From NCBI GenBank assembly GCA_037137535.1, contig JBAXKC010000006.1, forward strand, positions 10,835-74,834: a stretch of 64,000 bases of DNA, written 5' to 3'. The notes under the pieces are model-generated. The model was not told the origin of the DNA. It made no database searches and saw only the letters and a program-made list of their open reading frames with translations. The stretch comes from a bacterium. GTDB lineage: Bacteria; Cyanobacteriota; Vampirovibrionia; Gastranaerophilales; JBAXKC01. How positions within the stretch are numbered: position 1 is the first letter of the stretch; every line of letters begins with the position of its first letter. Shown one piece after another: positions 8,364-22,114 of the stretch. Made by a program: the position numbers and the translations under genes.

Positions 8364-10481
8364 ATGCATAAATCATCACAAAAAGGAAACGTATTAGTTG
8401 CAATGGTCATTATAATTGCGTTTCTACTTGCTTCAATGGCCGCAGCCGCTTTTTATTTTAATTCTCTTCCTCCTATTTCACAGTTGAAAAATTATCAGCC
8501 TACTTTTATGTCTGAAATAGTTTCAAGTGATGGAAAAGTTATTAAAACCTTCGGCGCATTAAAGTATAAAAAGACTACGATTGATGAAATTCCTGTCAAC
8601 TTAAAAGAAGCTATTATAGCAACTGAAGACAAGAATTTTTATCATCATATCGGATTTGATCCTTTAGCCCTTGTAAGATCAACCCTTTCAAACCTTAGAG
8701 CAGGGCATGTTGTTCAAGGTGCCAGTACAATCACTCAACAGCTTGCCAGAATATTGTTTTTATCAACAGAAAAAACAATGGATAGAAAAGTAAAAGAGCT
8801 TATAATCGCTTACAGGCTAGAAAAATCTTTACCGAAAGATAAAATTCTTGAAATGTACTTGAATAATGTATATTTGGGTGAAGGAGCTTATGGAGTAGCT
8901 TCAGCATCAGATATTTATTTCAATAAAAGTGCAGAAAAGCTTAACTTGGCTGAATGTGCTTTGATTGCAGGTTTACCTCAGGCTCCGTCTGTATATTCTC
9001 CTTTCCAGAATATGGATTTGGCAAAACAAAGAAGGCATCAAGTTCTTGAGCGTATGGTGAAAATGAACTTTATTACAGAAGCTCAAGCAGAAGAAGCAAA
9101 TAATGCACCTGTTCACTTGAGTCAAAATCATAGACCTTCTGCAATTAATAGAGCTCCTTATTTCGCAGATTATGCGATGAAAGAGCTTAGAGATGAAATT
9201 GGAATAACCGAACAAGAAATAATTCAGGGTGGTTATAAGATTTTCACTACCTTAGATTATAAAGCACAATTAGAAGCTCAAAAAAGTATAAGAGATAATC
9301 TTTCTAAATGGGGATTAACAAGACATTCAGATGAAGCCTCATTTGTTTCTCTTGATTCAGCTACAGGAAAAATTCTTGCGTACTTAGGCGGAAAAGATTA
9401 TGACATAAGCCAATATGACAGAGCTTCTCAATCAATAAGACAGCCTGGTTCAGCGTTTAAAGTTCTTGTTTACATTACTGCAATCGAAAGAGGGTTAAAG
9501 CCTGATTCACTATATGACGACAGACCTTTAACCATAGGCAATTGGTCGCCACACAATTATAGCCATAGATACAGAGGTAAAATAAAATTATCTGATGCAC
9601 TTGCATTTTCTTCAAACGTTGTTGCCGTAAGACTTATAACTGATCTTGGCGTTGATAGCGTAATCAGCATGGCTAGAAGACTTGGATTAACAACACCGAT
9701 TGCAACTGATCCTACTATTGCATTAGGTTCAAGTGGTGTTAAAAATATAGAGATGACTACTGCGTATGGAGTTCTTGCAAATGGTGGAATAAGAGTAAAA
9801 CCTCACGCTATTGAAAGAATTGAAACCGCTAACGGACAGGTAATATATGAAGCATCTAATGTCGGAGAAAGAGTTTTAAGTCCTGAAACCGTATCCCAAG
9901 TTGTACAAATGATGAAAGGTGTCATGAAAAAAGGTACAGCCAGATCAGCCAATCTTGGAAGACCTTGTGCCGGTAAAACAGGCACGACAGATAGTTATAA
10001 AGATGCATGGTTTATAGGATTTACTCCTGAAGTTGTTACAGGTGTATGGGTTGGAAATGATAATAATGCCCAACATCATGGATTAACAGGGGGGACTGCT
10101 CCTGCTGCTATATGGAAAGAATACATGACTTCAGTTATGGCAAATAAACCTGTTACTGACTTCACAAATCCTGGAGTTCCTATAACTGCTAATAACAAGG
10201 TTCAGCAAGACACTTCAATGCAGGATTTACAGAATTTTGAAAATAGTAACCCAGCTGAAAGTGTTCCTGCTAATTCAGTTAATCCTGAAACAGTTGATGT
10301 GAATAATGCTGATGTAAATGAAAATTACAATAATAACTCCTCTCAAGGCAGCAGTGCTCCAGTTCCACAGGCTAGACCTCAGCAGACAAAAACGATTCAG
10401 CAACCTAAAGTCCAATATAATCAGCCTAGCACTACTGTTGGGCCACCAGTTCCCGAGAGTACAGACAATTCGGAAAACTAA
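8364..10481 (+). CDS. Class A penicillin-binding protein (PBP1A family)
   Basis: N-terminal TM; GT51 motifs EDKNFYHH, GASTITQQL, RKVKE, YLN; transpeptidase SAFK, SSN, KTG; low-complexity C-tail. Confidence 0.95.
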   Translation: MHKSSQKGNVLVAMVIIIAFLLASMAAAAFYFNSLPPISQLKNYQPTFMSEIVSSDGKVIKTFGALKYKKTTIDEIPVNLKEAIIATEDKNFYHHIGFDPLALVRSTLSNLRAGHVVQGASTITQQLARILFLSTEKTMDRKVKELIIAYRLEKSLPKDKILEMYLNNVYLGEGAYGVASASDIYFNKSAEKLNLAECALIAGLPQAPSVYSPFQNMDLAKQRRHQVLERMVKMNFITEAQAEEANNAPVHLSQNHRPSAINRAPYFADYAMKELRDEIGITEQEIIQGGYKIFTTLDYKAQLEAQKSIRDNLSKWGLTRHSDEASFVSLDSATGKILAYLGGKDYDISQYDRASQSIRQPGSAFKVLVYITAIERGLKPDSLYDDRPLTIGNWSPHNYSHRYRGKIKLSDALAFSSNVVAVRLITDLGVDSVISMARRLGLTTPIATDPTIALGSSGVKNIEMTTAYGVLANGGIRVKPHAIERIETANGQVIYEASNVGERVLSPETVSQVVQMMKGVMKKGTARSANLGRPCAGKTGTTDSYKDAWFIGFTPEVVTGVWVGNDNNAQHHGLTGGTAPAAIWKEYMTSVMANKPVTDFTNPGVPITANNKVQQDTSMQDLQNFENSNPAESVPANSVNPETVDVNNADVNENYNNNSSQGSSAPVPQARPQQTKTIQQPKVQYNQPSTTVGPPVPESTDNSEN

Positions 10482-10496
10482 AACAATACATAATAA

Positions 10497-10526
10497 AATA
10501 AAGCGGGATGTAAGTCCCGCTTTATT
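10497..10526. terminator. Bidirectional terminator
   Basis: Perfect inverted repeat AATAAAGCGGGA / TCCCGCTTTATT between convergent genes. Confidence 0.8.
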
Positions 10527-10543
10527 CGTTATAAGAAAAAAAT

Positions 10544-10813
10544 TTAATTGTTTGCGTTTTCAGATTCTTTTGCAATAGCTTCCTGTACTTTTTTTAATAG
10601 ATCATCTCCTTTTTTTTGAATTTCATCCATTACATCAGAAGCCTTTGCTTGTAAATCTTTTAAAGATGACTCTGTATTTGCTTTAACATCGCCGGATGTT
10701 TTTGCTATCAGGTCTCTAGTTTCTTCACCTGATCTCGGTGCAAGAATTACACCAAAAACACCGCCTACTAATCCACCAATTACGAAACCTGCTAAGAATT
10801 TTCCTACTGACAT
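10544..10813 (-). CDS. YtxH domain-containing protein
   Basis: FLAGFVIGGLVGGVFGVILAPRSGEETR signature followed by an amphipathic helix; AGGAG RBS. Confidence 0.88.
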   Translation of the reverse strand: MSVGKFLAGFVIGGLVGGVFGVILAPRSGEETRDLIAKTSGDVKANTESSLKDLQAKASDVMDEIQKKGDDLLKKVQEAIAKESENANN

Positions 10814-15444: not shown

Positions 15445-16575
15445 ATGATGAATTTTGAAGAAATAAGAGAACATTTTCCTGTATGCCGTAACTTGATTTA
15501 CTTTGATAACGCAGCTGTTGCTCCAATTCATACATTAAGCATTAAATATGCTGATGATTATTTAGATCATTTTTTAAATTACGGATTTAGAGATTATGAT
15601 ACATGGTTCAATAAATACGAAGAAATAAGAGAAGGTCTTGGAAAATTTATAGGAGCTAAAAAATCTGAAATAGCTTTTATAAAAAATACTTCTGCGGGGA
15701 TTTCTGTTTTTGCAAATGGTGTGGACTTTAAAGATGGCGATAATGTTATAATTCCAAATATTGAATACCCTGCAAATGTTTATCCATGGTTAAATCTAGC
15801 ATCCAAAGGTGTTAAAACTAAGTTTTTAAAAGCTGATAACGGTTACATTGATCTTAATGCATTAAGTGCACTTATTGACTGTAATACACGAGTTCTTTCA
15901 ATCAGTTGGATAGAATTTGTAAATGGATTTAAAAATGATTTAAAAGCTATATCAGAACTTTGCATGCAAAAATCTTTAGAGTATGGAAGAAAAATTTACT
16001 TTTGTGTAGATGCTATTCAAGGCTTAGGGGCTTTTGATATTGATGTAAAGGCTTTAAATATTGACTTTTTAGCGGCTGACGGACACAAATGGTTTTTAGC
16101 TCTTGAAGGAGCAGGATTTTTATATTGTTCTGAAGACATAATTGATGAAATTAAACCTGCATCTGTGGGCTGGAAAAGTGTTGAAAATCCTTTGGATTTT
16201 ACTGATATTAATTTTACTCTTCAAAAGACAGCTAATAAATTTGAAGAAGGTACTTTAAATGTTGTTGGTATTCTTTCACTTGGTGCAAGTTTAGATCTTT
16301 TTAATTCAATAGGCATAAAGAATATTGAGGATAGAATACTCTCTCTAAGTAATTATGCAGTTGAAAAAATCTCTCAAAAAGCTGAATTGAAAAGTTATCG
16401 GCAAGAAAAGCATCGTTCGGGAATCATATCATTTGTTACAAAAGATATTGAGAAAGATTTCTTAAAGCTGCTTGCAAACAAAGTACAGCTATCAAAACGA
16501 GGCGAGATGTTAAGAATTTCTCCGCACTTCTATAATACTCATGAGGAAATTGATAGATTTGTGGATATGCTTTAA
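15445..16575 (+). CDS. Class V PLP-dependent aminotransferase-fold enzyme
   Basis: YFDNAA, EYPAN, VDAIQ, ADGHKW (PLP Lys), FEEGT, LRISPHFYN. No Cys in the C-terminal persulfide loop region. Confidence 0.88.
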   Translation: MMNFEEIREHFPVCRNLIYFDNAAVAPIHTLSIKYADDYLDHFLNYGFRDYDTWFNKYEEIREGLGKFIGAKKSEIAFIKNTSAGISVFANGVDFKDGDNVIIPNIEYPANVYPWLNLASKGVKTKFLKADNGYIDLNALSALIDCNTRVLSISWIEFVNGFKNDLKAISELCMQKSLEYGRKIYFCVDAIQGLGAFDIDVKALNIDFLAADGHKWFLALEGAGFLYCSEDIIDEIKPASVGWKSVENPLDFTDINFTLQKTANKFEEGTLNVVGILSLGASLDLFNSIGIKNIEDRILSLSNYAVEKISQKAELKSYRQEKHRSGIISFVTKDIEKDFLKLLANKVQLSKRGEMLRISPHFYNTHEEIDRFVDML

Positions 16576-16643: not shown

Positions 16644-16763
16644 GGACGATTGGGGAATACGTCCATGAGAATGAATTTGGTTTTATATAGTCAGTGCATA
16701 TTCCACTCTCACTCATAAACTGTTTTCTTAAAGATCGGATTTACTTTTCTGGTCTTTTTTTTT
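16644..16763 (+). other. Candidate structured leader or small RNA containing a 17-codon ORF (16665-16718)
   Basis: Hairpin GGACG...CGTCC enclosing GGGGAA; second imperfect stem ATGAG...CTCAT; then an intrinsic terminator. No match to a riboswitch consensus I know. Confidence 0.4.
16730..16763 (+). terminator. Rho-independent terminator upstream of the nitrogenase-like operon
   Basis: AAAGATCGGA pairs with TCTGGTCTTT (two G-U pairs), followed by a long T run. Confidence 0.75.
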
Positions 16764-16823: not shown

Positions 16824-17408
16824 ATGGAAAATAACTATCTAAAAATAAATATTGTTGATGTAAATGAAATAATTTTAAGTTTACAAACTAATAAAAATGA
16901 CTTTATAAAAAATCACATTAAACATACTAAAATTAAAAATATTGAATTTACTGTTAATAACTGTGTTTATGGGCAAGAAGTTATTTCATTTTGCTGTTTT
17001 ATTAAAATACCTGTTTGGGAATTAAAATTGAGAGAACTGCTAAAGCCATTTCAACTGATAGATTTAGGTAATCAAATATTTGAAATAAAGTTTAACGATA
17101 AACACGTTAGTTATTTAAAATATCAGAAAAATTTTGGTATATATATTTTTAATGGACGACCTGATCTCTTTTCAAAAATGAAAAAAGAGAACTTTATTAA
17201 TATAAATTATTTTGAAGAAACATTTCAAAATACCATTAATTTTGTGGAATTATTTTTAAATCTGATATATAAAGATAATATTCATTCTAAATTAGAAATA
17301 ATGCCCTCAGCTAATAGAAAAAAAACAGAAACATTGGAATATAAAAAAACAAAAGAACTTCCTGAATCACTAAAACGCTTTTATAAAAGAATTGGACACA
17401 ATCAATGA
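16824..17408 (+). CDS. Hypothetical protein, first gene of the nitrogenase-like operon
   Basis: 194-aa ORF whose stop overlaps the next start (ATGA at 17405-17408). No recognised motif. Confidence 0.65.
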   Translation: MENNYLKINIVDVNEIILSLQTNKNDFIKNHIKHTKIKNIEFTVNNCVYGQEVISFCCFIKIPVWELKLRELLKPFQLIDLGNQIFEIKFNDKHVSYLKYQKNFGIYIFNGRPDLFSKMKKENFININYFEETFQNTINFVELFLNLIYKDNIHSKLEIMPSANRKKTETLEYKKTKELPESLKRFYKRIGHNQ

Positions 17409-18250
17409 GCAAAAAAATCAGACAAATAGCTATATACGGAAAAGGCGGCATCGGAAAATCAACCACTTCTTCAAATTTAACTGCTGCGATTAGCTATATG
17501 AATTTCAACCTTGCTCAAGTCGGTTGTGACCCTAAATCTGATTCTGTTAATTCACTTGTAAAGGGTGAATTTATAAAGACTGTTTCAGATTTAGTTAGAG
17601 ATTATGGAGAAAGTGAAGAAACTTTATTAGAGTCAGTAAGGCAAGGTTTTAATAATATTTCTTGTATTGAATCAGGCGGACCAGAACCGGGACAAGGATG
17701 TGCAGGCAGAGGTGTTTTAGTTGCGCTGAATTTAATTGAAAAATATAAAATTTATAAAAAATTCAATATAGATTTTGTTGTATATGACGTACTTGGGGAT
17801 ATTGTCTGTGGTGGCTTTGCTCAGCCTGTAAGGCAAGGTTTTGCTGAAGAGATATACATTGTGACCAGCGGTGAATATATGTCGCTTTATGCGGCTAATA
17901 ATATTGCTAAAAGTATTAAATCCTTTGCTGAAAGTGGATTGAATTCCAGACTTTGCGGAATAATTGCAAACTTGAAAAATACTGAAAACGAAAAAGATAC
18001 TATTGAAGAATTCTCAAAAAAACTTAATGTTCCTGTTATACATTATGTTCCACGTTCTAAATTGGTACAGGATGCAGAATTTCAAGGAATGACAGTTATT
18101 GAGGCTTTTCCTGACTCAGAACAGGCTGAACAATACTTTGAATTGGCTCATAATATAATAAATAATACAGTTAAAAACATTCCAACTCCTTTAAATAAAG
18201 AGGAATTGCTTAATTTAACACAAAAATATAGGCAAAATTATGTCAGATAA
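17405..18250 (+). CDS. nflH: Nitrogenase iron-protein-like ATPase/reductase (NifH/BchX/BchL/CfbC family)
   Basis: YGKGGIGKSTT, GCDPKSDS, ESGGPEPGQGCAGRG, YDVLGDIVCGGFA; both [4Fe-4S] cysteines present. Confidence 0.95.
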   Translation: MSKKIRQIAIYGKGGIGKSTTSSNLTAAISYMNFNLAQVGCDPKSDSVNSLVKGEFIKTVSDLVRDYGESEETLLESVRQGFNNISCIESGGPEPGQGCAGRGVLVALNLIEKYKIYKKFNIDFVVYDVLGDIVCGGFAQPVRQGFAEEIYIVTSGEYMSLYAANNIAKSIKSFAESGLNSRLCGIIANLKNTENEKDTIEEFSKKLNVPVIHYVPRSKLVQDAEFQGMTVIEAFPDSEQAEQYFELAHNIINNTVKNIPTPLNKEELLNLTQKYRQNYVR

Positions 18251-19727
18251 AATAAAAACGAAATATAATTGGGTAAAAGTTTCTGAAATGTATGACGAAA
18301 CTCCTAATCTTAACTCCAATTATGCTAAAAATTGCACACATAAAGGCTATGAGGGTTTGTGGTGTAAACTAATTAAAGCAGTAACCTCTTATGGAATGAC
18401 CAACGACTGCGTAGCGGTAATCCATGGGCCTACTAACTGTGCCTGGGCTGTTAGGAATTTCTGTTCTACCAATTATAGCCTATATTACGGTAATTCTTTC
18501 TTGCATATGCCTACAACTGCTTTGAATAACAGTTCAATAGTAAATGGCGCTGAAAAAGAACTTATAGACACTCTAATTGAGGTGGATAAAACTTATAAAC
18601 CTCAACACATAGCAGTTTTTGATACTTGTTCTACCTCTTTAATAGGCGATAATATTCAAAATTGTATTAACGAAGCTCAATTAAAATGTGCGGCTAAAAT
18701 TAATTTTATTGAGGGAGCAGGGTTTTCTTCACCTCCATTAGGGCAATCTATTCAGGAAACTGCTGTAAAATACGGTGAAATCATGGAAAAACCTGTGCAC
18801 ATAATTCCTAAATCCGTTAATATTCTTGGACAATACAAAGAGGGGCATTGCAATAAAAAAAAGAAAAAAAGGGGTAAATATCCCGATGATGCTCAAGAGT
18901 TAGTGAGATATATCGAGGCATTAGGGCTTAATATTCATAGAGTTCTGATATCAGGCGATTATGAATATATTAAAACAGCACCAGAGGCTTTAGTAAATGT
19001 GATAAGTTGCCCAACATGGGGACTACCACTTGCTAAGACAATGAAAGACATGTTTGATACTCCTTATTTGCCGCATTCTGTTCCGACAGGCATTGAGTCA
19101 ACTTGCAGGTGGATAAGGGATTTGGCCTATTTTACGGATACGGTTGATGAAGCTGAAATTCTTATAAATAAAGAATTAGAGCTACTTAATTTGATTTTTG
19201 AAAAAGCAAAAACTCTTGTAAATGGAAAAACAGCCCTCATTGAATGTGGAAGAAATTCTATGACAGCCTTTGCAAGGCCGATGGCATTGGCAAGATTTCT
19301 TCAAGAGCTTGGAATGAAGCCGTATTTGTTCGGATTGCATCCGTTTGAGCTTAAAGCTAAAGGCATTGACCTTGATTATTTCTTGTGGGATGGCTTTAAT
19401 CCTATGATTTTAAGCGATCCGTATCATTATCAAAATCCCACTAATATTGCTAATGTGATAAAAGATCTTGAATTAAAAGAAGAAGATTATGTCTATTTTT
19501 CACAAGATGTTTTTCCTATGGCAAAATCGGGAGAGTTTGACCCGTCCTCAAATGCTAAGGTTGAAGTAAGTGTTCATTTAAGAAGAGTTTTTAATTCGCC
19601 CGGTAGAGGTGTCGGTTTTAAGGGAGCTGAAGCACTTTGTCAGAATATTATAGAGTCGGTTTTAATGGCATCAAGAAAAACAAAACCAACTCTTTATGGT
19701 AGAGTTCACGGTGAATTTTATGATTAA
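18240..19727 (+). CDS. nflD: Nitrogenase component-1-like alpha subunit (NifD-like, non-canonical)
   Basis: Cys42 (WCKL), Cys67 (HGPTNC), Cys130 (DTCSTSLIGDN), GAGF, VNILG, Cys257 (NVISC), C-terminal GFKGA. Lacks the NifD SQSLGHH motif. Confidence 0.88.
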   Translation: MSDKIKTKYNWVKVSEMYDETPNLNSNYAKNCTHKGYEGLWCKLIKAVTSYGMTNDCVAVIHGPTNCAWAVRNFCSTNYSLYYGNSFLHMPTTALNNSSIVNGAEKELIDTLIEVDKTYKPQHIAVFDTCSTSLIGDNIQNCINEAQLKCAAKINFIEGAGFSSPPLGQSIQETAVKYGEIMEKPVHIIPKSVNILGQYKEGHCNKKKKKRGKYPDDAQELVRYIEALGLNIHRVLISGDYEYIKTAPEALVNVISCPTWGLPLAKTMKDMFDTPYLPHSVPTGIESTCRWIRDLAYFTDTVDEAEILINKELELLNLIFEKAKTLVNGKTALIECGRNSMTAFARPMALARFLQELGMKPYLFGLHPFELKAKGIDLDYFLWDGFNPMILSDPYHYQNPTNIANVIKDLELKEEDYVYFSQDVFPMAKSGEFDPSSNAKVEVSVHLRRVFNSPGRGVGFKGAEALCQNIIESVLMASRKTKPTLYGRVHGEFYD

Positions 19728-21120
19728 GAATAATTTTAAAGACTTAATGCAACCCGGAAGTTTTATAGGAGCAACTTTAACTGCTTCGGGTATTAAAAAC
19801 GCCATTATAATTTTTCATGGGATTGCAGGCTGTAATATCGAGGCAATACATTTCAGATCAGACCAGATTCCGGGTGGGCATTATGTTCCTATAATACCGA
19901 CAGGTTTAAACCAGACAGATTGCCTTTATGGGGGCTATGAAAAACTTATTACCACTTTGAGGGATACTTTAAATTCTTCTATAAAACGAGGGCGACCACC
20001 AGAAGTTGTATTTATTTTTACAAGCGATGCTACTTCGATAATAGGTGATGATATAGAACGAGCCGCTAATGTTATAGAAGCTGAAACAAGTATTAAAACT
20101 ATAGCAATTGATTGTCCCGGATTTGCAGGCGGAACAGCTCATGGTTGCGATATTACGGCTGAGGCTATTTTTGAAAAATTCTTATACGAAAATAATTCTG
20201 AATTAAAGGATAAAAATGGAATTAACATAGTTTTCCCATATTTAATGGGTTCAAAAAACTGGGTTAATGACCATGATGAAATTGTAAGACTTCTTGAAGC
20301 CTGTGATGTTAAAGTAAATACAGTTTTATCAAGAAATTTAAAGATAAAAGAATTAGACAAATTTTTTAATTCTAAAGCAAATTACAATCCTTCCTCAGAG
20401 AATATCCCTTCTCTGGAAAAATATTCAGAAACTTATGACATAAAAACCATTAATAACAGCATACCTTTGCCTATTGGTATAGCAAATACCGAAGAATGGC
20501 TTGTATATATGGCAAAAAATTATGGAAATTTCGAAAAAGCTAAAGAAATTTTAAAGCAGGATGCAGATTTTATAAATTCTCAACTTAGATATAACTATAA
20601 TTTCAGCTGGATAAGCACGTTAATGCATGGAAAATATTGTTCAATTTTAGCTCATGCTAATTTTGCGGCATCACTAGCCAGATGTTTATATTGGGATTTT
20701 GGGATAATTACTAAAGTTATCGGTATTGTTGCAGAAACTCAACAGGCAATAGATAATGCTTTAGAGCTTTTAGAGCCACTTAAAGAGTTTTTTGATATGG
20801 AAATCCTTATTAATCCGACTTATCATGAATATGGTCAAATGATGACTTCTAAAAACGTTGATTTTTCTATTGGGGCAATTCAAGATAAACCTTTATCTTT
20901 GGGATTAAAAGTGCCTCATTTATCTCTTGGTGGATATTACTTTTATAATCAATATAATTTTATTCCTTATCCAAATATGGGAATAAGAGGAGTATTAGGA
21001 ATTATTACAGAACTATCAAGAGTTTTAGAAGATGCTTTTTATTTAAAAGATATGTTGTCTGAATATTCATACAAGGGCAGGGAGGAAAATATTGAAAGCA
21101 GCTGTTCTACACCAAAATAA
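19720..21120 (+). CDS. nflK: Nitrogenase component-1-like beta subunit (NifK/BchZ-like, non-canonical)
   Basis: QPGSFIGA, HGIAGC, YGGYEKL, TSDATSIIGDD, CPGFAGG, PIGIANTEEW, PNMGIRG; only one of the three NifK P-cluster Cys. The ATG at 19720 overlaps the upstream stop. Confidence 0.87.
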   Translation: MIKNNFKDLMQPGSFIGATLTASGIKNAIIIFHGIAGCNIEAIHFRSDQIPGGHYVPIIPTGLNQTDCLYGGYEKLITTLRDTLNSSIKRGRPPEVVFIFTSDATSIIGDDIERAANVIEAETSIKTIAIDCPGFAGGTAHGCDITAEAIFEKFLYENNSELKDKNGINIVFPYLMGSKNWVNDHDEIVRLLEACDVKVNTVLSRNLKIKELDKFFNSKANYNPSSENIPSLEKYSETYDIKTINNSIPLPIGIANTEEWLVYMAKNYGNFEKAKEILKQDADFINSQLRYNYNFSWISTLMHGKYCSILAHANFAASLARCLYWDFGIITKVIGIVAETQQAIDNALELLEPLKEFFDMEILINPTYHEYGQMMTSKNVDFSIGAIQDKPLSLGLKVPHLSLGGYYFYNQYNFIPYPNMGIRGVLGIITELSRVLEDAFYLKDMLSEYSYKGREENIESSCSTPK

Positions 21121-22114
21121 TAATTTTTTAACGATAGAAGAAGTCGAGCTTCCTCTAATTAATGATGATGAAATTCTTGTAAAAGTAATCGCATGTGGTG
21201 TTTGCCATACAGATTTGCACTATATAGATCATGGAGTGGATACTTTTCAATCAAAGCCTGTTATTTTAGGGCATGAAATATCTGGAATAGTTGAAGATAG
21301 TAAATCAGAGTATTTTGAAATTGGTGATAAAGTCTTATTACCTGCTGTTTACACCTGTGGAGAATGTTCATTCTGCTTGAAAGGAAGAGAAAACCTATGT
21401 AAAAACTTTACTATGCTTGGTAATTCTATCAATGGAGGCTTTGCCGAATATATTAAAGTAAAAGCAAAAGATTCTATAAAACTTCCTGATTCTATGCTTT
21501 TAGAGGAAAGTTGCATCATTGCAGATGCTGTTTCAACCCCATATTATGCAGTTGTACACAGAGCTAAAGTTGCAAAATATGAAAATGTTTTAATAGTAGG
21601 TTGTGGTGGTGTTGGAATAAATGCTGTTCAAATTGCTTCAATGCTTGGGGCAAATGTAATAGCGTGTGATATTAATGATAATAAGCTGAAAATTGCCAAA
21701 GAATTAGGTGCAAAACATACAGTGAACTTGGCAAAAGATGATTTAAAAACGTTCTTAAAAGATAATAAAATTACTATAAATAAAGCGTTTGAAATAATCG
21801 GGCAGCCCAAAACGATTGAGCTGGCTTATAAAATGTTAGGAGTTGGCGGAAAACTTTGTATAATTGGCTATACTAATCAAAATATCAATATAAATCCTGC
21901 TAAAATTATGTTCTATGAGCAAGAAATAATTGGCTCATGCGGATGTCCTCCACGAATATATCCTGAAATTATTGAATTGGTTGAAAAAGGTAAATTAAAT
22001 CTATCAAAAGTGATAAATAATAAATACTCTCTGGATGCTGTTAATAAAGCTTTTGACGAGCTAAGAAGCGGAAAGATTCTGCGTAATATCATCTTGCCTA
22101 ATAGTAAAATATAG
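21092..22114 (+). CDS. Zn-dependent medium-chain dehydrogenase, 6-hydroxycyclohex-1-ene-1-carbonyl-CoA dehydrogenase (Had/BamQ)-like
   Basis: CGVCHTDLHYIDHGV, GHE, structural Zn CGECSFC...C, ADAVSTPY, GCGGVG, GCPPRIYP. TTG start with GGAGG RBS overlapping nflK. MDR family is certain; the Had subfamily call rests on recalled motifs. Confidence 0.85.
   Translation: MKAAVLHQNNNFLTIEEVELPLINDDEILVKVIACGVCHTDLHYIDHGVDTFQSKPVILGHEISGIVEDSKSEYFEIGDKVLLPAVYTCGECSFCLKGRENLCKNFTMLGNSINGGFAEYIKVKAKDSIKLPDSMLLEESCIIADAVSTPYYAVVHRAKVAKYENVLIVGCGGVGINAVQIASMLGANVIACDINDNKLKIAKELGAKHTVNLAKDDLKTFLKDNKITINKAFEIIGQPKTIELAYKMLGVGGKLCIIGYTNQNININPAKIMFYEQEIIGSCGCPPRIYPEIIELVEKGKLNLSKVINNKYSLDAVNKAFDELRSGKILRNIILPNSKI

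Follow-up and report, generated by a model that had tools for sequence, protein, structure and literature searches.

Gene content of the nfl locus

The window analysed here is a 64,000 nucleotide stretch of contig JBAXKC010000006.1 (positions 10,835 to 74,834) from the Gastranaerophilales assembly GCA_037137535.1, which represents a cyanobacterial relative that is not photosynthetic. It contains three genes, nflH, nflD and nflK, which encode a nitrogenase-like (NFL) system designated NflHDK. In the open reading frame list these are the middle three of five plus strand genes with overlapping ends, the outer two being those for a 194-residue hypothetical protein and a Zn-dependent alcohol dehydrogenase. 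The host genome (G000) is 2.95 Mb in size and is rated 100% complete, and the locus lies on its contig C6. The features discussed are collected in Table 1. Taken together, they suggest that NflHDK is rather probably a reductase driven by ATP, in which a [4Fe-4S] cluster acts as relay and the cofactor is an 8Fe cluster made by NifB.

NflH scores 321.9 bits against Pfam Fer4_NifH, 371.5 against TIGR01287 nifH (cut-off 394.35) and 350.1 against CfbC (cut-off 402). Related loci were collected using the NflD alignment as query. NflH is found beside nflD in 13 of 15 of them, and the only conserved neighbours across these loci are H, D and K.

Table 1. Positions of the nfl genes, of the candidate ligand residues and of other features (window coordinates, except for the last row).
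Feature	Position	Strand	Remarks
NflH, NifH-type ATP-dependent reductase	17405..18250	+	P-loop GKGGIGKS; Cys99/Cys135 at NifH Cys97/Cys132 positions
NflD, alpha-type subunit, 495 aa	18240..19727	+	Nitrogenase component 1 family (Pfam/NCBIfam)
NflD Cys42, interface cluster	18363-18365	+	Codon checked
NflD Cys67, interface cluster	18438-18440	+	Codon checked
NflD Cys130, interface cluster	18627-18629	+	Codon checked
NflD family-specific basic loop, residues 202-213	18843..18878	+	GHCNKKKKKRGK; contains Cys204; not in NifD or Mar-like profiles
NflD Cys257, cofactor site	19008-19010	+	Codon checked
NflD His446	19575-19577	+	Followed by Arg448, Arg449
NflK, beta-type subunit, 474 aa	19696..21120	+	Nitrogenase component 1 family (Pfam/NCBIfam)
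NflK Cys46, bridging (middle) position	19831-19833	+	Sole P-site Cys kept in K
NflK Asp111, NifK Cys153 site	20026-20028	+	Codon checked
Zn-dependent alcohol dehydrogenase	21092..22114	+	Pfam ADH_N + ADH_zinc_N; overlaps nflK end by 29 nt
Hypothetical protein, 194 aa	16824..17408	+	Stop overlaps start of nflH; unmatched in Pfam and NCBIfam
Class-V aminotransferase, SufS/cysteine-desulfurase kind	15445-16575		Upstream of nfl genes; sufS 180.8 bits (cut-off 475.1)
Stand-alone NifB-core radical S-adenosylmethionine (SAM) gene, 258 aa	G000 contig C15, 3716-4489 (L001:1498-2274)	-	Profile and structure match; no NifX domain

Conserved cysteines of NflD

The initial annotation of this locus proposed, from an alignment by eye, that NflD keeps three cysteines at the positions of P-cluster ligands of NifD, as well as a cysteine and a histidine at the positions of its cofactor ligands. 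The residue numbers proved to be exact, namely Cys42, Cys67, Cys130, Cys257 (in ALVNVISCPTW, residues 250-260) and His446, with GFKG at 459-462. Conservation was assessed in 69 NflD homologues of 38-100% identity, counting at each position only those sequences that have a residue there. The four cysteines are invariant (Cys42 in 67/67, Cys67 in 68/68, and Cys130 and Cys257 each in 69/69), and the conserved residue pattern is not a matter of chance.

A phmmer search against solved structures aligned Cys67, Cys130 and Cys257 with Cys62, Cys124 and Cys250 of NifE (9ian_A, native numbering), and the family profile aligned Cys257 with the cofactor cysteine of C. pasteurianum NifD, in the motif LNLVQC. 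Cys42 was aligned by MAFFT with the first P-site cysteine of both NifD and NifE; the HMMER profile alignment to the solved chains stops short of the C-terminal third of NflD. Cys257 also shares an alignment column with a cysteine of Mar-like D proteins, the equivalent of MarD Cys270. Both the retention of the three interface cysteines and the placing of Cys257 at the NifD Cys275 position are thus borne out. The same three cysteines and the Cys275 equivalent are kept by every aligned D-type group except an IsrD-like one. Judged by sequence, it is K and not D that is the unusual subunit of NflDK.

One D-type clade (P0137, P0148, P0165 and P0184) has only the middle interface cysteine and no Cys275 equivalent, which is the pattern given for IsrD in the part of a recent review that describes it (PMC13474568).

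The AlphaFold2 model of NflD has a predicted local distance difference test (pLDDT) score of 85.8. A fold search gave Z scores of 24-26.5, which were similar for NifEN, BchB, MarD and NifD and did not discriminate between them.

NflD also contains a basic loop, at which hhalign opened a gap against both NifD and Mar-like D. Most of it (HCNKKKKKRGK, residues 203-213) was originally described as an insert that may bind an anionic substrate such as CoA. The loop is present in all 69 homologues, with a length of 8-42 residues (median 19) and a net charge that is always positive (+1 to +8, median +5). It contains one cysteine in 36 of the sequences, two in 32 and three in 1, and Cys204 is kept in 66/66. 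In the AlphaFold2 model it is disordered (pLDDT below 50 at residues 205-212). No tie to CoA was found for this family-wide, variable and always cysteine-bearing loop, and that part of the proposal was dropped. The loop may help to capture or insert an anionic cofactor.

NflK has one interface cysteine and an aspartate

The motif numbers of NflK were also exact: PGSFIGA is at 20-26, HGIAGC at 41-46, TSDATS at 109-114 and DCPGF at 139-143. Gly21 occupies the site of NifK Cys70. Conservation was assessed in the same way in 22 homologues. Cys46 is present in 21/21, while the first site (position 21) is cysteine in only 3/20 and Gly, Ser or Leu in 17/20. Site 111 is Asp in 15 of the 22 sequences, Cys in 6 and Thr in 1. 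This alternation of Asp with Cys across the family agrees with the suggestion that the Asp of TSDA could be a cluster ligand. The initial annotation had also argued that NflK, having the middle cysteine only, cannot build a canonical six-cysteine P-cluster, unless another cysteine such as that of DCPGF takes part. No other cysteine is conserved in NflK (Cys140 of DCPGF is found in 1/22 and Cys151 in 2/22), so no other K cysteine completes such a cluster, and the argument holds. His52, Arg54 and Asp56, just downstream of Cys46, are conserved.

The NflK motifs align with those of NifN and MarD. HGIAGC aligns with HGAQGC of the NifN half of fused NifEN and with MarD Cys91, TSDATS with NifN TSGLTE and MarD TSCPTA (Cys158), and PGSFIGA with SPALGA of the NifN half of fused NifEN. 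The full pattern of D and K residues was found in all seven loci that contain both genes, down to 43% identity and under three organism labels, one of them Chloroflexi, and TSDAPS is read in five further NflK genes that are unlinked from nflD. The AlphaFold2 model of NflK has a pLDDT of 85.4, and the fold search was again not discriminating (Z scores of 31.5-33.6, similar for BchB, NifEN, MarK and NifD).

A K-type protein outside the NflK family, P0106, has PGS.VGA, the middle cysteine and Asp at the third site, and is either a distant NflK member or a convergent case. In five Gastranaerophilales-type metagenome-assembled genomes (MAGs) nflK is on a different contig from nflHD (L016, L018, L019, L021 and L024, against L067-L072). 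The K match in genome G288 carries an in-frame TGA, and the K gene of L023 is split into open reading frames 9408-9749 and 9728-10744; these broken genes are possible frameshifts or assembly errors.

A NifB-core gene accompanies NflD

NifB builds the elaborate Fe-S core of the nitrogenase cofactor. A search of the host genome for nifB, which the initial annotation had suggested, located the gene on contig C15 that is listed in Table 1, between a RecJ-like gene and a gene for a Gln-rich protein. The 258-residue product scores 239.9 bits against TIGR01290 nifB, over positions 7-276 of 441. It matches M. thermoacetophila NifB (6y1x_A) with an E value of 5e-59, and the HPC, CxxxCxxC, CxSTNG and CxxCRxDA motifs are aligned. 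This profile and structure evidence identifies the radical-SAM partner as a true NifB core.

Co-occurrence was examined in 201 genomes, an even sample of the class, with thresholds of E<=1e-30 for NflD and E<=1e-20 for NifB-like proteins. Both genes are present in the same three genomes (G000, G001 and G008) and neither is present in the other 198. Matches to TIGR01290 were also found in 6 of 10 further NflD-bearing MAGs, whose completeness is not established. In one locus, from an uncultured bacterium (L029:4244-10876, on a 955-kb contig), the genes form an operon in the order enoyl-CoA hydratase, GNAT, NflH, NifB (with a NifX domain), NifX-like, NflD and NflK; its D protein is 49% identical to NflD. 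These co-occurrence and operon data are the strongest evidence for the predicted NifB-derived cluster at the Cys257 site.

In G001 and G008 the NifB-like gene is directly 3' of an enoyl-CoA hydratase gene (L012:6231-6992 and L013:8070-8831). Besides the three NflD genomes, the best matches of the hydratase include G169 (9.5e-44), a genome with no NflD, and the link of the hydratase to NflHDK is weak. The host genome holds only two PF00148 proteins and gave no match to nifD (TIGR01282), so that a scaffold would have no nitrogenase to supply.

Family placement

The D and K proteins score far below the curated NCBIfam cut-offs of every named family. NflD scores 109.2 bits against nifE (cut-off 505.1) and 73.5 against TIGR01282 nifD (cut-off 653.55), while NflK scores 48.6 against TIGR01286 nifK (cut-off 427.3). 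The score for nifN is 37.9 bits (cut-off 326.8), for BchB 62.4 (cut-off 490.35) and for BchZ 31.7 (cut-off 529), and BchN is likewise far below its cut-off. The named relatives of NflD are Melainabacteria/Gastranaerophilales MAGs.

A quick unrooted IQ-TREE phylogeny was made of 51 D- and K-type proteins. NflD forms its own clade (support 100) on a long stem, outside both the NifD plus NifE clade and the Mar-like clade. NflK also forms its own clade (support 100), which is sister to the other K-type proteins (support 99). NflHDK is a clade of its own within the nitrogenase superfamily, present mostly in Melainabacteria. Within NflK the three-cysteine members are basal and the Asp-type members are nested, and distant or outgroup K-type proteins mostly have cysteine at all three sites (21, 46 and 111). 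This suggests that the clade lost one cysteine and turned another into Asp, and the 3+1(+Asp) site therefore looks to be derived, within the family, from a six-cysteine P-cluster site.

A literature search by name found no published description of the ligand pattern of this clade, although MAG labels such as 'Gammaproteobacteria' can hide it. No Melainabacteria or cyanobacterial names occur in the four supplement files of PMC13753814 that were searched. Several MAGs with a melainabacterial-type nfl operon are titled 'uncultured Gammaproteobacteria bacterium'.

Neighbouring genes

The alcohol dehydrogenase that overlaps nflK has TIGR03201 as its best NCBIfam match (268.8 bits, cut-off 338.65). 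Its place beside nflK is peculiar to this genome. In 17 other loci no homologue of the alcohol dehydrogenase, of the class-V aminotransferase or of either hypothetical protein of the window was found next to NflHDK (blastp 1e-8, phmmer E<=1). A 249-bp gap and a terminator-like hairpin (16730-16757) stand between the aminotransferase gene and the nfl genes.

The 194-residue hypothetical protein probably belongs to the nfl transcription unit in this genome. Unrelated-looking hypothetical genes are found at the equivalent place in G001 and G008, and their products show no significant similarity to it (E 0.72). The hypothetical proteins whose genes overlap the nflH start in three genomes (window 16824-17408, L025:6283-7146 and L026:6374-7141) have no family match, but all end in a short P-E-x-L-K/L motif, which is present twice in the longer ones. 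A promoter and terminator scan found no more sites than expected by chance, and no sulfur-metabolism neighbours were seen in the window or at related loci.

Proposed function and alternatives

The NifEN scaffold provides the basis for the proposed mechanism. Its permanent [Fe4S4] O-cluster is bound by Cys37, Cys62 and Cys124 of NifE and Cys44 of NifN, and its L-cluster by NifE Cys250 (equivalent to NifD Cys275) and by Gln419, which replaces His442; with NifH it is an ATP-dependent two-component reductase, as set out in the relevant part of PMC13031127. By analogy, electrons from NflH would first reach a [4Fe-4S] cluster between D and K, ligated as in the O-cluster by three cysteines from D and Cys46 from K, while Asp111 of NflK would be a fifth ligand of a second-sphere, tuning or exchangeable kind. 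From here electrons would go to an L-cluster-type [8Fe-9S-C] cofactor in NflD, made by NifB, where the substrate would be reduced. Cys257 would hold this cofactor at one end and His446 most likely at the other, with Arg448 and Arg449 nearby.

We consider such a two-cluster, ATP-driven reductase to be the probable function, though not strongly so, because the ligand pattern is conserved, aligns to NifE and NifN and is exactly the complement that NifEN uses with NifH, and because the NifB core co-occurs with NflD, a nifB gene lies in the same operon in L029 and the host genome has no nitrogenase that NflDK could serve as a scaffold. It is also quite possible, if less assured, that NflHDK is a naturally occurring, self-contained enzyme that corresponds to L-cluster-loaded NifEN plus NifH. 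It would be an ATP-driven reductase in which a carbide cluster made by NifB is fed by a plain [4Fe-4S] cluster with no P-cluster, and it would have arisen by simplification of the six-cysteine site in an NFL clade that was not classified before and that comprises Melainabacteria and some other lineages, few in number.

Several observations weigh against the two-cluster reading. The first group concerns His446. This residue is kept in 63/66 NflD homologues (with Arg448 in 65/65 and Arg449 in 64/65), but is Pro in two and Asn in one. With GFKG anchored on GYDG, His446 falls five residues ahead of the NifD His442 column when NflD is aligned to 21 NifD sequences by MAFFT or hhalign, whereas hhalign against Mar-like D, which pairs the preceding strands, would place it two residues after. 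His446 is thus a conserved residue of the strand-loop element in which NifD His442 lies, and its original equation with His442 is no more than possible, the register being -5 or +2 depending on the alignment. The AlphaFold2 model is weak here (block pLDDT 51-66 for residues 421-450), and a phmmer search of the PDB with the last 155 residues of NflD gave no relevant match. In MAR and in almost all Group IV systems, MarD Cys270 is described as being paired with a different histidine, His429 (preceded by Arg428), and not with one at the His442 position (part of PMC13474568). An NflD counterpart of the Arg428/His429 motif was not found by hhalign, in which the Mar-like R-H-G-G stretch is an insertion and NflD reads YFS/QDVFP. 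Other points concern NifB. Its gene is unlinked from nflHDK in the host genome and far from it, a NifX-type domain was not found in that genome, the co-occurrence represents two or three independent lineages only (two of the three genomes being in one family), and 4 of the 10 further MAGs gave no NifB match, their completeness being as noted above. Finally, a plain NifEN-type [4Fe-4S] cluster needs no fifth ligand, since NifN has Gly at the site, and the two-cluster reading by itself does not account for the conserved Asp111.

A first alternative is that the interface cluster is a P-cluster variant (8Fe or similar), in which Asp111 replaces the NifK Cys153 ligand, a non-cysteine, backbone or solvent ligand replaces Cys70, and the cofactor site is as proposed above. 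The Asp(15)/Cys(6) alternation, with one Thr in 22 K sequences, is what is expected of a ligand position, and the [4Fe-4S]-only NifN has Gly there. All six cysteines are kept in basal family members, and the conserved His52, Arg54 and Asp56 right after Cys46 point the same way. Asp can ligate such clusters, as shown by DPOR in the account given in part of PMC13474568. Nevertheless we regard a P-cluster variant as unlikely. Only five candidate ligands are conserved, as the first site is so rarely cysteine and no other K cysteine is conserved, and NifEN, the only proteins known to have the exact 3+1 cysteine pattern at this place, hold a [4Fe-4S] cluster (in the part of PMC13031127 that deals with it). 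A simpler enzyme was also considered, of the DPOR, COR or CfbD kind, in which the only cluster is a [4Fe-4S] one and the NflD pocket takes an organic substrate. Substrate binding or proton delivery would then be the role of Cys257 and His446, and the NifB-like protein would make something else. The 3+1 pattern fits a single [4Fe-4S] cluster, as in COR, and the unlinked nifB and missing NifX domain of the host genome fit as well. Enoyl-CoA hydratase genes beside nifB or nflH in three genomes, and the alcohol dehydrogenase that overlaps nflK here, hint at an organic and possibly CoA-linked substrate. However, the simple-cluster groups (DPOR, COR, CfbD, ISR and Group VI) have no Cys275 equivalent and no true NifB, as they are described in part of PMC13474568, and yet Cys257 is invariant in NflD. 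The 3/3 against 0/198 co-occurrence and the nifB and nifX-like genes of the L029 operon also speak against it, the alcohol dehydrogenase is not a conserved neighbour, and the best matches of the hydratase include a genome that lacks NflD. This makes a simple-cluster reductase improbable.

The least probable explanation, which we think hardly likely, is that NflDK is a NifEN-like maturase or scaffold, which takes the NifB product to mature or store it for another client protein. Its ligand pattern equals that of NifEN, NifE is the best single-sequence PDB match of NflD (E 2.4e-15), and the basic cysteine-bearing loop recalls the NifEN surface ligands Cys15 and Cys25 at the opening of the cluster tunnel, as described in part of PMC13031127. 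Against this, the genome has neither a further PF00148 protein nor nifD, and therefore no known client; NflD falls outside the NifD/NifE clade and far below the nifE cut-off; and most loci have retained an NflH of their own next to nflD.

To our knowledge, a P-cluster accompanies the L-type 8Fe cofactor in those NFL enzymes that have one (MAR, and probably Nfa), and NifEN scaffolds are the only proteins known to us that pair such a cofactor with a [4Fe-4S] cluster. If the two-cluster reading is correct, NflHDK would be an independent enzyme that has the clusters of NifEN and occurs in organisms without nitrogenase, and it could be used to test directly whether carbide-cluster chemistry requires a P-cluster to drive it. 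If NflHDK is the natural counterpart of NifEN plus NifH, nature would already have built the 'minimal' enzyme, O-cluster plus L-cluster, that laboratory studies of NifEN put forward as a model of primordial nitrogenase. Early nitrogenases have been proposed to be NifEN-like, in part of PMC13245594, and NflHDK would be a natural system for this proposal. If it is such a counterpart, the Cys-to-Asp switch in NflK would be a new device for cluster tuning and the basic cysteine loop in NflD a new device for cofactor loading. The two states found in one family (six Cys, or four Cys plus Asp) could be used to study the evolution of the site. The result also bears on an older claim of nitrogen fixation by Melainabacteria, made in part of PMC3787301.

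Comparison with known systems

Group VI NFL proteins (Elusimicrobia type) are described, in part of PMC13474568, as having no NifB in the genome and as missing the Cys275 and His442 positions. The nfl genome differs in having a NifB core as well as Cys257 and a conserved histidine, His446, near the His442 element, Group VI being compared by description only. In the isethionate reductase IsrHDK (Group IV-F) the P-cluster is predicted to be replaced by a four-cysteine [4Fe-4S] site, according to the same part of the review (PMC13474568). The pattern is however the mirror image, with one cysteine from IsrD and three from IsrK. IsrD lacks the Cys270 and His429 ligands, whereas NflD keeps Cys257, and IsrB has only a radical-SAM domain, as against the NifB core.

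DPOR (BchNB/ChlNB) and COR (BchYZ) of Group V resemble what is predicted for NflDK in having an asymmetric interface [4Fe-4S] cluster, to which one subunit gives three cysteines and the other a single ligand. The Asp of DPOR is at the middle position (that of NifK Cys95), whereas in NflK that position is Cys and it is the third site that is Asp. Group V enzymes have a [4Fe-4S] cluster only, with no conserved cofactor ligands in the Cys275/His442 region as they are presented in part of PMC13474568; NflD differs in keeping Cys257, and its genome has a NifB-core gene, with which it co-occurs. Nitrogenases (NifDK, VnfDK and AnfDK) differ in that they have six P-cluster cysteines, of which NflD has three and NflK one, with Gly21 and Asp111 at the other two sites.

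The methylthio-alkane reductase MAR (MarBHDK, Group IV-C, from R. rubrum, 9FMG and 9D9U) is likewise an NFL system that does not fix N2, and has a NifB homologue without a NifX domain. The equivalent of NflD Cys257 is MarD Cys270, and the cofactor of MarDK is an 8Fe cluster of L-like type. NifB is associated with the nfl system, as expected of Group IV NFL proteins with an L-like cluster (Mar/Nfa type), and the NflD profile is nearer to Mar-like D (hhalign E 2.1e-49) than to NifD (5.5e-27). On the other hand, MarDK has the full six-cysteine P-cluster, as against one Cys plus Asp in NflK, and NflD lies outside the Mar-like clade, has no counterpart of Arg428/His429 and was not seen with sulfur-metabolism genes as neighbours.

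NifEN differs in that NflD scores below the nifE cut-off, lies outside the NifD/NifE clade and has no nitrogenase in its genome to serve. NflD has His446 as a candidate ligand where NifE has Gln419, NflK has Asp111 where NifN has Gly, and NflD has the extra basic cysteine loop. In other respects the likeness is close: NifEN (A. vinelandii 3PDI, 9ONK and 9IAN, and fused 9I0G) has an interface site with three alpha and one beta cysteine, an alpha cysteine for the L-cluster and a beta subunit without the first and third cysteines, and it works with a NifH-type reductase and the NifB product. The initial interpretation, of a hybrid pattern with a COR-like cluster site, stands as regards the 3+1 cysteine site, Cys257, the nearby histidine and the possible Asp ligand, but not as regards the COR precedent or the CoA insert. 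It is concluded from these alignments, in which NflK fits NifN position by position, that the apparently hybrid ligand pattern of NflDK is that of NifEN, to which COR is the poorer analogy.

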